Below, piece by piece: positions 35,645 through 36,877 of a DNA stretch of 64,000 nt. Under the pieces are notes generated by a model, which saw only the letters and a program-made list of their open reading frames with translations, was not told the origin of the DNA and did no database searches. The translations under genes and the position numbers were made by a program. The stretch covers positions 1 to 64,000 of IMG/VR virus record IMGVR_UViG_3300020048_000103. One strand, 5' to 3'. The DNA comes from a virus (lineage: Duplodnaviria; Caudoviricetes). Numbering within the stretch: position 1 is the first letter of the stretch; each line of letters starts with the position of its first letter.

Positions 35645-35990
35645 AAAACTTGACAGGCGCGTGTTAATTCACGCGCTTGTTATTTAATTGGGGGTGACTG
35701 GATTTGACAGCATTTGAGTAAGAATGAATTTTATGCAGGTAGTTATGCCTTGAAATAGCAAAACCAGTAAAAGGCAAAGTTGTAAACTTTACCAGTCGTA
35801 TGACTCGCTTGGCAGCTTAGTTGGAACATAAAGTTGTATGGATTTCTCTATTAGATTAAATAGAGTGGTGGAGCAGGATTTAACCTTTACTACAACTTGG
35901 TTAGTCCCCACATCAGGAGTAAGATGTAAAAATACTCTAAGCATATAAAAAGGATTCATTAAGAAAGATTGTGTGGACGAGGGTTCGATT

Positions 35991-36828
35991 TAAGTAATGG
36001 ATCGCCTCAAGAGTAATCTTGTTGATTAAACTGGATGAATTGCTGGAAAGCTAAGTAAATAAAAAATCCCTATTACTGTAAAGTAATAAGGATTTTATTT
36101 ATATGCCAATCAGCAGCCAAGCCTACAGAGTAGGAAGGTTCAGAGACTACCTGAGGTATAGCGATATATCTTAATAACAGGAAGTAGCTTACTGTAATGA
36201 TTAAGTGAAAAAGCGTCCAGCTCTTAGCAGTCGGCTAAGATGATGATATAGTCCGGGTTTTAATGATTTTATTCAAATCATCCTCAGAAATGGGGTTAGC
36301 GTGAATCATTCTATGACAATTGGGACATAAGCATAATAGATTTTCTAAAGTAGTTAATCCTCCATTAGAAACTTCTATAATATGATGTAAATCTCTACTT
36401 GCTTTGTCCCAACCACATAGTTCACATGGTATTTTTTCAAAAATTTTATAATAGTATCTTATAGATAGACTTTCTTCAGAAATATCTTTCTGTTTTGCTC
36501 TATAATTTTTTTGTTTACATGAGTTTGAACAGTATTTAGCATTTTTAGAAGCAGCATTAAATTCTGCTCCACAATGTTTACAAATTTGTTTGTATTGTAA
36601 TTGTTTTGGCATTTTACCTGCACAAGATAATGAACAATATTTAGCATTTCCTCTATTCAATTCTCTAGAGTCAGCCATAAATGATTTACCACAGCATTCG
36701 CATAATTTTTCAATTTTTGACATATTTTTTAGTTTAATTTAATAGTACAAAGGTACAAAATTATTTTAGATAAAAAGCTATAACGTATGTTAAAAAATGT
36801 TAAAAATTATATTTGCCAAATAAACTCG
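35991..36828 (+). mobile_element. Group I intron in the tmRNA T loop
   Basis: P1 CGATT/GATCG with U.G at the splice site; core elements AATTGCTGGAAAG, AATCAGCAGCCAAG, TTCAGAGACTA, GATATAGTCC; terminal G at 36828. Confidence 0.9.
36235..36723 (-). CDS. HNH endonuclease with two YCS zinc fingers, antisense within the intron
   Basis: CELCGWD...DLHHII...LCLCPNCHRMIH; own TACCTTTG promoter at 36748-36755. Confidence 0.88.
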   Translation of the reverse strand: MSKIEKLCECCGKSFMADSRELNRGNAKYCSLSCAGKMPKQLQYKQICKHCGAEFNAASKNAKYCSNSCKQKNYRAKQKDISEESLSIRYYYKIFEKIPCELCGWDKASRDLHHIIEVSNGGLTTLENLLCLCPNCHRMIHANPISEDDLNKIIKTRTISSS

Positions 36829-36877
36829 CCCTCCACCTCCACGACTTCAACTATTTATTAATCTAACATTAATCAAG

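Follow-up and report, generated by a model that had tools for sequence, protein, structure and literature searches.

A tmRNA gene apparently split in its T arm by a group I intron with an antisense HNH gene in a phage genome

We analyzed a 64,000-nucleotide stretch of phage DNA (the window), which begins at position 1 of a 73-kb IMG/VR virus record (IMGVR_UViG_3300020048_000103; CheckV completeness 41%), in which a transfer-messenger RNA (tmRNA) gene had been predicted to be interrupted by a group I intron hosting an HNH homing-endonuclease gene on the opposite strand. All sequence-level statements of the original prediction about these three elements were re-found at positions 35690-36841, a span that coincides exactly with the mature tmRNA ends. 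The best public match to the window came from an aquatic metagenome, and partial relatives were present in wastewater and lake metagenomes. Because Logan contigs from two wastewater studies (X2 record 10; X3 records 17-23) hold the same composite of exon 1, intron, HNH gene and exon 2 at about 89% identity, we ruled out an assembly chimera. A terminator-like hairpin and T-run of the upstream gene (35651-35689, plus strand; 13-bp stem with seven G-C pairs) ends one base before the tmRNA 5' end.

The tmRNA gene lies on the plus strand in two exons. Exon 1 (35690-35990) was recognized through a partial match to the Rfam model RF00023, and its ends align with those of seven uninterrupted phage tmRNAs. 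It contains the 5' strand of the acceptor stem (GGGGGTG, 35690-35696), a D-loop-like segment (GGATTTGAC), a tag frame, a pseudoknot region and GGAC, and its 3' end comprises the 5' strand of the T-stem and the complete 7-nt T-loop UUCGAUU, with GGACGAGGGTTCGATT ending at 35990. We placed the tag reading frame (35773-35820, plus strand) by analogy with ARAGORN-called tags of relatives, such as GNKTISFARTAFMAAA. It runs open from a GGC resume codon to a TAG stop (GGC AAA ... GCA GCT TAG) and encodes (A)GKVVNFTSRMTRLAA; the LAA ending was read from the sequence, with no ARAGORN call. Exon 2 (36829-36841, plus strand; CCCTCCACCTCCA) supplies the 3' strand of the T-stem (CCCTC), the 3' strand of the acceptor stem (CACCTCC) and a discriminator A. 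It is followed by CGA, and CCA is not encoded, as in the relatives. Pairing of GGGGGTG with CACCTCC (36834-36840) gives a 7-bp acceptor stem that includes G3.U70, the alanine-identity pair.

Only joining of the two exons forms the T arm, GAGGG-UUCGAUU-CCCUC. The in silico join of 35990 to 36829 reads GGACGAGGGTTCGATTCCCTCCACCTCCA, a near base-for-base match to tmRNAs that are uninterrupted in related phages (such as GGACGAGGGTTCGATTCCCTCCACTTCCA in L217), and the predicted ligated product across the junction is GGGUUCGAUU followed directly by CCCUCCACC. The joined gene has the features of a standard-form tmRNA: an acceptor stem with G3.U70, a discriminator A, a 5-bp T-stem, a 7-nt T-loop and a tag with a stop codon. 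The earlier claim that tmRNA function requires splicing agrees with this arrangement, in which the T arm and the 3' acceptor strand would be brought together only by removal of the intron.

On the unspliced DNA, RF00023 scored 24.5 bits (E 1.2e-7 for the stretch and 1.6e-9 for the record) over 35697-35991 and stopped within the T-loop; this score, found only at a relaxed threshold below the gathering threshold of 47 bits, is that of genomic sequence in which the model runs out at the intron. Neither ARAGORN nor Rfam at its gathering threshold called a tmRNA in the window. Using the adjacent 708-aa protein (phrog_1735) as an anchor, we retrieved 80 related viral loci; the small upstream protein and the HNH protein, each as sole query, retrieved none. 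In the first 50 related records, seven carried an uninterrupted tmRNA above the Rfam cut-off (54.7-107 bits). Most of these seven share the GGGGGTG/CACCTCCA acceptor stem, none encodes CCA, and their tags end in AA. We found no SmpB gene in the 73-kb record, which is 41% complete.

Two further observations concern the tmRNA sequence. A 32-nt piece of exon 1 (35841-35873, around GAGTGGTGGAGCAGG) recurs at 100% identity in an unannotated part of the crAss-like phage cr128_1 and at 87-94% identity in unannotated parts of about 20 Lactococcus 949-group phage records, and a similar segment, GGTGGTGGAGCA, occurs in the viral contig L137. This piece may be a conserved tmRNA pseudoknot element, or the matching phages may hold overlooked tmRNA-like genes. 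Separately, the permuted tmRNA model RF04321 gave near-threshold matches in related large phages (L096 1553-1780 [G003], 43.3 bits; L095 1047-1337 [G024], 41.2 bits; gathering threshold 47). The match in L096 lies about 1 kb downstream of the shared anchor gene, a position resembling that of the tmRNA in the window.

The intron occupies 35991-36828 on the plus strand (838 nt) and is of an IA-like subgroup with a P7.1/P7.2-type insertion; we read its splice sites from the sequence. RF00028 matched 35981-36276 over the full model (1-253) with 84.2 bits (gathering threshold 50; E 5.9e-20), making this the only group I intron at the gathering threshold in the window and in the whole record. The Rfam alignment contains P1, P2 (loop GUAA) and P3-P8, with 60 nt inserted between the 5' strand of P7 and the 3' strand of P3. 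P1 is a 5-bp helix between the exon end CGAUU and the internal guide sequence GGAUCG (35999-36004), with the pairs C86-G04, G87-C03, A88-U02, U89-A01 and U90.G00 (last two digits of each position). It is followed by the P2 hairpin CAAGA-GUAA-UCUUG (36008-36021), placed by the Rfam alignment, and by a long P5-extension hairpin (36063-36096). On the minus strand this hairpin, which lies downstream of the HNH gene, reads as a 15-bp terminator-like stem with a T-run after it.

The 3' part of the core begins with GATATAGTCC (36245-36254), which holds the 3' strand of P7 and the catalytic-core junction. The 5' strand of P9.0 (GGGUUU, 36255-36260) and a 7-bp P9 hairpin (AUGAUUU-UAUUC-AAAUCAU, 36263-36281) come next. 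About 540 nt, including the open reading frame (ORF) of the HNH gene, separate the P9 hairpin from the 3' strand of P9.0 (AAACUC) and the terminal (omega) G36828, which together occupy 36822-36828; GGGUUU pairs with 36822-36827. The same P9 layout is shared by the crAss-like phage cr55_1 (GAAAC...GUUUC) and by L227, a viral locus with an ORF-less intron. In these lineages the P9.0 equivalents are AGAUUC/GAAUCU (cr55_1) and ACA/UGU (L227), and in all three P9.0 starts at most one base from GAUAGUCC and ends directly before the terminal G. The P9.0 helix is thus supported by covariation, since its sequences differ among the lineages yet the pairing is kept.

Wastewater relatives provided compensatory changes in other helices. 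In P1, 35989 T>C accompanies 36001 A>G; in P2, 36010 A>G accompanies 36019 T>C, and 36011 G>A accompanies 36018 C>T; and in the P5 extension of a relative, 36071 T>A accompanies 36088 A>T. Indels in the HNH ORF of these relatives occur as frame-restoring pairs (-1/+1 at 36466/36468 and +1/-1 at 36484/36490). The counts of both kinds come from a few contigs and carry no statistical test; as they stand, the variants suggest that RNA structure and reading frame are both under selection.

Because G36828 is the terminal G and CCCTC is the T-stem strand, exon 1 must end at U35990, which leaves a 7-nt loop. A U.G 5' splice site and a terminal G had been proposed to restore the T arm, and we located them as U35990.G36000 and G36828, with exon 2 completing the T arm and the acceptor stem. 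On this placement the intron is inserted after loop nucleotide 7 and before the T-stem, a position that PMC11915505 numbers as subsite 8. Three other viral lineages with the same 16-mer exon end have their intron at subsite 7; there the exon ends in GAU, the guide has one base less and a U comes after the terminal G.

The core sequence is closest to introns of phage protein-coding genes. [quoted passage not shown] Judged by these matches, the ribozyme is drawn from the general phage intron pool, and a single intron lineage evidently moves between protein-coding and RNA genes.

The sole long ORF in the intron is an intact HNH homing-endonuclease gene of 162 aa on the minus strand (36235-36723). 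It lies within the intron, between the P9 hairpin (36263-36281) and the 3' strand of P9.0 with the terminal G (36822-36828), and its last 42 nt (36235-36276) extend into the Rfam-matched core, covering the 3' strands of P8 and P7, P9.0 and most of P9. The protein matched PF01844 (6e-10; 39.6 bits, cut-off 21.4) and phrog_1271 (2.7e-24). Two Cys-rich repeats occupy its N-terminal part and the HNH domain its C-terminal part, and its PDB sequence matches are confined to HNH domains (McrA, 2.7e-6). Residues C100, C103, H113, H114, N128, C133, C136, H137 and H141, comprising catalytic and zinc positions, are invariant among its homologues. The last seven codons overlap the 3' strands of P8 and P7: TISS is the antisense reading of GATGATATAGT and is invariant in the HNH alignment. 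The predicted overlap of the last codons (TISSS) with the core element GATATAGTCC at 36245-36254 was borne out.

Several short motifs accompany the HNH gene. Two adjacent or overlapping TAnnTTTG motifs (36748-36763, minus strand), 25-40 nt upstream of its ATG, are a candidate promoter at the level of a motif match. On the plus strand, TATATTTG (36808-36815), another TAnnTTTG motif, also falls within the intron, and the ATG of the next gene (36878) lies 63 nt downstream of it. A 13-mer, ACATACGTTATAG (36778-36790, minus strand), occurs once in the window and can be read in cr55_1 itself. Its last 12 nt, CATACGTTATAG, are common to the 5' flanks of both HNH lineages (L126 2936-2947; L247-L253 2991-3002), lying 55 nt upstream of the HNH ATG in the window and 5 nt upstream in the cr55_1 group. 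The single occurrence of the 12-mer in the window argues that it is a part of the cassette and not a general promoter.

The combination of intron and antisense HNH gene, including the overlap with P7, recurs in the RefSeq crAss-like phages cr55_1 and cr1_1 (NC_055869 and NC_055873) and in about ten IMG/VR contigs, which also hold the nearest HNH homologues (52% aa identity); in both RefSeq records the HNH gene is annotated and the RNA parts are not. As in the window, the HNH gene of the cr55_1 group follows P9 on the strand opposite to the intron and its end overlaps the 3' core at P7, the T-arm exon sequences (GGACGAGGGTTCGATT and CCCTCCA) are identical, and the intron core can be aligned. 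This shared layout indicates that the intron and the antisense HNH gene have long travelled together. The two phages differ from the window in several respects: their intron lies at subsite 7, one base upstream, with the exon ending in GAU and the terminal G followed by U; it is without P2 and without the long P5 extension; and the tmRNA gene appears circularly permuted, with GGGGCTG and GGATTTGAC 76-100 nt downstream of exon 2.

In cr55_1 (L126, NC_055869.1, 2264-2997 and 3087-3223; also L171, L189 and NC_055873) the tmRNA gene is seemingly both permuted and intron-split. Its order is a T-arm half, a group I intron (58.7 bits) with the antisense HNH gene, TCCCTCCAGCTCCA, and then the matching 5' acceptor strand GGGGCTG, and after GGGGCTG and GGATTTGAC a short tag-like frame runs to a tRNA-Lys gene. 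No Rfam tmRNA model scored above threshold at this locus. From its layout, the product would apparently be a two-piece tmRNA, with an acceptor piece ending in CAGCTCCA and a coding piece starting with GGGGCTG. Within 1-3 kb of the tmRNA/intron locus, phages of the cr55_1 type hold RAGATH-22, RAGATH-9 and one Hatchet ribozyme (L126 1394-1594; L244 4147-4313; L247 4876-5054 and 5908-6034).

Other relatives carry the intron with different contents. In L137 (IMGVR_UViG_3300040801_005040, 3219-4215), a standard-order phage tmRNA has an intron at subsite 7 with a core near-identical to that in the window, and in place of the HNH gene this intron carries an antisense LAGLIDADG gene (3734-4138, minus strand; PF14528, 4.6e-9). 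In L227 (oriented, 10944-11597) the phage tmRNA has an ORF-less intron of about 240 nt at subsite 7, with a minimal layout of P9.0, P9 and terminal G. Read across the lineage, the variation between HNH, LAGLIDADG and no ORF is the gain-and-loss pattern of mobile introns. Two additional group I introns, in L121 (1380-1900, minus strand; G042) and G014 (20789-21041), scored 53.6 and 50.5 bits. About 50 nt beyond each lie a complete T arm and acceptor end of tRNA type, and ARAGORN called no tRNA there; these loci may be intron-split tRNA or tRNA-like genes in relatives of the window phage. A scan for the exon 1/intron junction pattern, allowing observed Y/R variants, found no match in viral contigs or JGI metagenome contigs, and a scan of bacterial genome contigs with the P7 motif gave 120 loci, none with the tmRNA 5' consensus upstream.

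We directly observed the anatomy of the gene, the family membership of its parts, the recurrence of the arrangement in other phages and the covariation of its helices. On this basis we consider it likely, with good confidence, that the locus is a phage-borne, standard-order tmRNA gene of the intron form, in which a T-arm group I intron carries an antisense HNH gene as mobile cargo. From the same observations we infer splicing, HNH expression, the HNH target and homing, as follows. A guanosine would attack after U35990, held as a U.G wobble by the guide GGAUCG, and the 6-bp P9.0 helix would bring the distant terminal G36828 beside the core for exon ligation. Host enzymes would then process the spliced RNA through RNase P cleavage, trimming of the 3' end and addition of CCA. 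The mature tmRNA would be used with host SmpB, which we propose because none is encoded in the 73 kb on record.

The HNH protein is probably made from its own minus-strand transcript, since a processed, untranslated RNA would be a poor messenger. The antisense orientation is most simply explained by the need for a separate transcript when an ORF sits in an untranslated, highly structured RNA, a rationale already established for I-DirII and I-DsqI in nuclear ribosomal DNA introns (PMC3073962, PMC9548176). The nuclease probably nicks or cuts the intron-less tmRNA T-arm DNA (GGACGAGGGTTCGATT/CCCTCC) of co-infecting phages; repair would then copy the intron and the HNH gene into the cut allele, and the split allele itself would be immune. 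Potential targets are present in 100 viral contigs that hold the uninterrupted 16-mer followed by CCCTC.

A number of results weigh against this interpretation. ARAGORN detected no tmRNA in the in silico spliced RNA, with every plausible junction and lowered thresholds; this failure weighs little, because ARAGORN also missed two of the seven Rfam-positive relatives. No obvious P10 pairing was seen, and no tmRNA promoter was identified for a gene that begins one base past a terminator-like hairpin. In four public runs, no read or contig joined 35990 to 36829. RNA-library contigs reached only exon 1 or generic intron-core segments, and the lone one on exon 1 (X17; 97% identity, 35698-35933), which may be carried-over DNA, stops short of the junction. 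A close intron-less allele of this tmRNA was absent from the 396 retrieved loci, in which only the conserved ends match, so that homing is argued from distant 'empty' sites only. Distant relatives of the HNH gene are free-standing in phage tRNA clusters.

The promoter motif is a further point of this kind. TAnnTTTG occurred 95 times in the window, as against 105 ± 11 expected by chance, with a mild enrichment 10-90 nt upstream of ORFs (11 versus 5.3 ± 2.3), and a sigma-70 promoter scan gave seven sites versus 6.3 in shuffled sequence, showing no excess. Of the earlier claim that the HNH gene lies on the opposite strand with its own promoter, the strand therefore stands, and the promoter reduces to a motif match at chance frequency. 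The same holds for the claim of a plus-strand promoter motif for the next gene inside the intron: the motif is present, and its status as a promoter did not rise above chance.

An alternative that we regard as rather unlikely is that the HNH gene is a secondary invader at an early stage. A free-standing HNH gene of tRNA or tmRNA clusters would have landed in the periphery of a resident ORF-less intron, a late stage of 'collaborative homing'; it might target another site and not yet form one homing unit with the intron. The distant HNH relatives (31-40% identity) suit this account, being free-standing in phage tRNA arrays and in one case 1.4 kb from a tmRNA, as does a second HNH cassette in a tRNA gene of the tRNA region of the same genome, which shares the Cys-rich repeat and the HNH motif. 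The HNH gene has its own orientation and a conserved 5' flank, and the intron lineage also occurs ORF-less and with a LAGLIDADG gene. However, the HNH gene does not adjoin the intron but lies within its boundaries, flanked by P9 and by the 3' strand of P9.0 with the terminal G, and the intron and HNH gene with the same overlap have been kept across the divergence from cr55_1 (52% aa identity, another subsite and another gene order), which argues for co-inheritance as a unit. Collaborative homing in the proper sense has the endonuclease gene outside the intron; the ORF here (36235-36723) is within it.

Another account, which the original prediction had raised and which we judge improbable, is antisense control. 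A minus-strand HNH transcript, running from about 36760 across the ORF, P8, P7 and P6 to the hairpin at 36096-36063, would block splicing by pairing or by transcriptional collision and so tune tmRNA output. The geometry permits this: the ORF overlaps P8, P7 and P9.0, and the minus-strand terminator-like hairpin, about 140 nt past the HNH stop codon, lies inside the core. Termination at this hairpin, if it occurs, would give an HNH transcript that is complementary to the ribozyme over P5 to P9.0. This is the only concrete anatomical point favoring the idea, and the P5-extension hairpin is missing from the introns of cr55_1 and L137. The overlap of the ORF end with P7 is kept between HNH genes that are just 52% identical, and for ribosomal DNA (rDNA) introns, antisense endonuclease transcripts have been discussed as a possible source of interference (PMC9548176). 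By contrast, the public runs contained no strand-resolved transcripts, the promoter motif is not above chance, and the TISS overlap is more simply explained by conservation of the ribozyme core. The cr55_1-type ORF extends 12 codons further into the core, suggesting that the ORF ends at the first stop met, and the occurrence of the same intron lineage with a LAGLIDADG gene or without an ORF suggests selfish cargo rather than a switch serving the host gene.

A role for the HNH protein beyond homing also seems to us a long shot. The protein would recognize the T-arm sequence GGACGAGGGTTCGATTCCCTCC, which is common to many phage tmRNA genes, and could cut the genes of competitors, and host ssrA if the site is present there. 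The phage tmRNA, with its different tag, would replace host trans-translation while its own copy stayed immune, and antisense HNH transcription could time the process. Least credible is a dead gene, in which the insertion disabled the tmRNA (through a non-splicing ribozyme or as a decaying remnant) and the locus became a parking place for selfish DNA: the failure of ARAGORN on the ligated sequence, the lack of P10 pairing, a terminal G 570 nt from P7 and the lack of splicing evidence in public runs would fit, but the core scores well in every helix (84 bits), P9.0 covaries and is in place together with the U.G pair and the terminal G, compensatory changes in P1, P2 and the P5 extension of relatives about 11% diverged indicate selection on RNA structure, and in the exons the pairing of the acceptor stem is perfect and includes G3.U70, the T arm fits the consensus, and the tag frame is open to its LAA end.

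The tmRNA field lists three gene forms, standard, intron and permuted, and has so far described the intron form in bacterial hosts with LAGLIDADG cargo. Intron-form tmRNA, with a group I intron in the T-psi-C loop, was first found in Clostridium botulinum and now comprises 883 unique sequences from 21 phyla at four T-loop subsites, with subsite 8 reported in Saprospiraceae only (PMC11915505). The C. botulinum intron cited in the original prediction is therefore a real precedent, and one that is far broader than a single species. The endonuclease genes of these bacterial introns encode LAGLIDADG proteins (36 of 883) and lie after P9 or in P7.1 (PMC11915505). Like the bacterial genes, the gene described here has an insertion in the T-loop, a -1 U in a wobble pair, a terminal G and a T arm that ligation would rebuild, with the endonuclease gene after P9 and subsite 8 among the four catalogued positions. 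Unlike them, it has a phage carrier, an HNH cargo on the opposite strand and a subsite 8 insertion outside Saprospiraceae. The words HNH, antisense, orientation and strand are absent from the text of PMC11915505, which names phage only for a minimal mycobacteriophage form, its text supplements make no mention of phage, virus or HNH, and we found no paper describing a phage intron-form tmRNA or an HNH cargo or antisense orientation in one. Thus, the intron-form tmRNA gene is known from bacteria; the phage carrier, the HNH cargo, the antisense orientation and subsite 8 outside Saprospiraceae are new.

Taken together, these results extend the picture to large crAss-related phages, which carry intron-form tmRNA genes whose cargo can be HNH or LAGLIDADG; in the examined lineages with either cargo, it lies on the opposite strand. 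The seemingly permuted gene that houses the intron in cr55_1 and cr1_1 would unite two of the three gene forms. As ARAGORN and Rfam at its gathering score miss such genes entirely, the carriage of tmRNA by phages is under-counted. Known phage-encoded tmRNAs, such as the mycobacteriophage ones in the tmRNA database (PMC11915505), are likewise phage-carried and are uninterrupted or minimal, whereas the gene in the window would need splicing. No known mechanism is overturned; the locus offers a compact system for studying how an intron, a nuclease and an RNA of an essential pathway coexist.

Among phage introns, group I introns with HNH genes on the sense strand include those of I-HmuI and I-HmuII (SPO1/SP82), I-TwoI (Twort) and I-PfoP3I (Pf-WMP3) (PMC3428280). 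These systems, and the S-PM2 psbA intron with its free-standing F-CphI, resemble the present one in pairing a phage IA-type ribozyme with an HNH mobility partner. Their host genes are protein-coding, and their ORFs lie in sense inside the intron or are free-standing, whereas here the ORF is antisense inside the intron and the host gene is a tmRNA gene. Antisense endonuclease genes with their own promoters are known from nuclear rDNA introns, namely I-DirII (Didymium iridis S956-2) and I-DsqI (Diderma L2066) (PMC3073962, PMC9548176). The logic is alike: the host gene specifies an untranslated structural RNA, and the endonuclease is encoded on the other strand, within a peripheral loop of the P9 region. 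The rDNA endonucleases are eukaryotic proteins of the His-Cys box class, expressed by RNA polymerase II with polyadenylation and spliceosomal introns; the protein here, being a bacterial-type HNH in a phage and presumed to be expressed, falls outside that class. In the bacterial world, the locus offers a counterpart to the antisense endonuclease genes found in eukaryotic rDNA introns.

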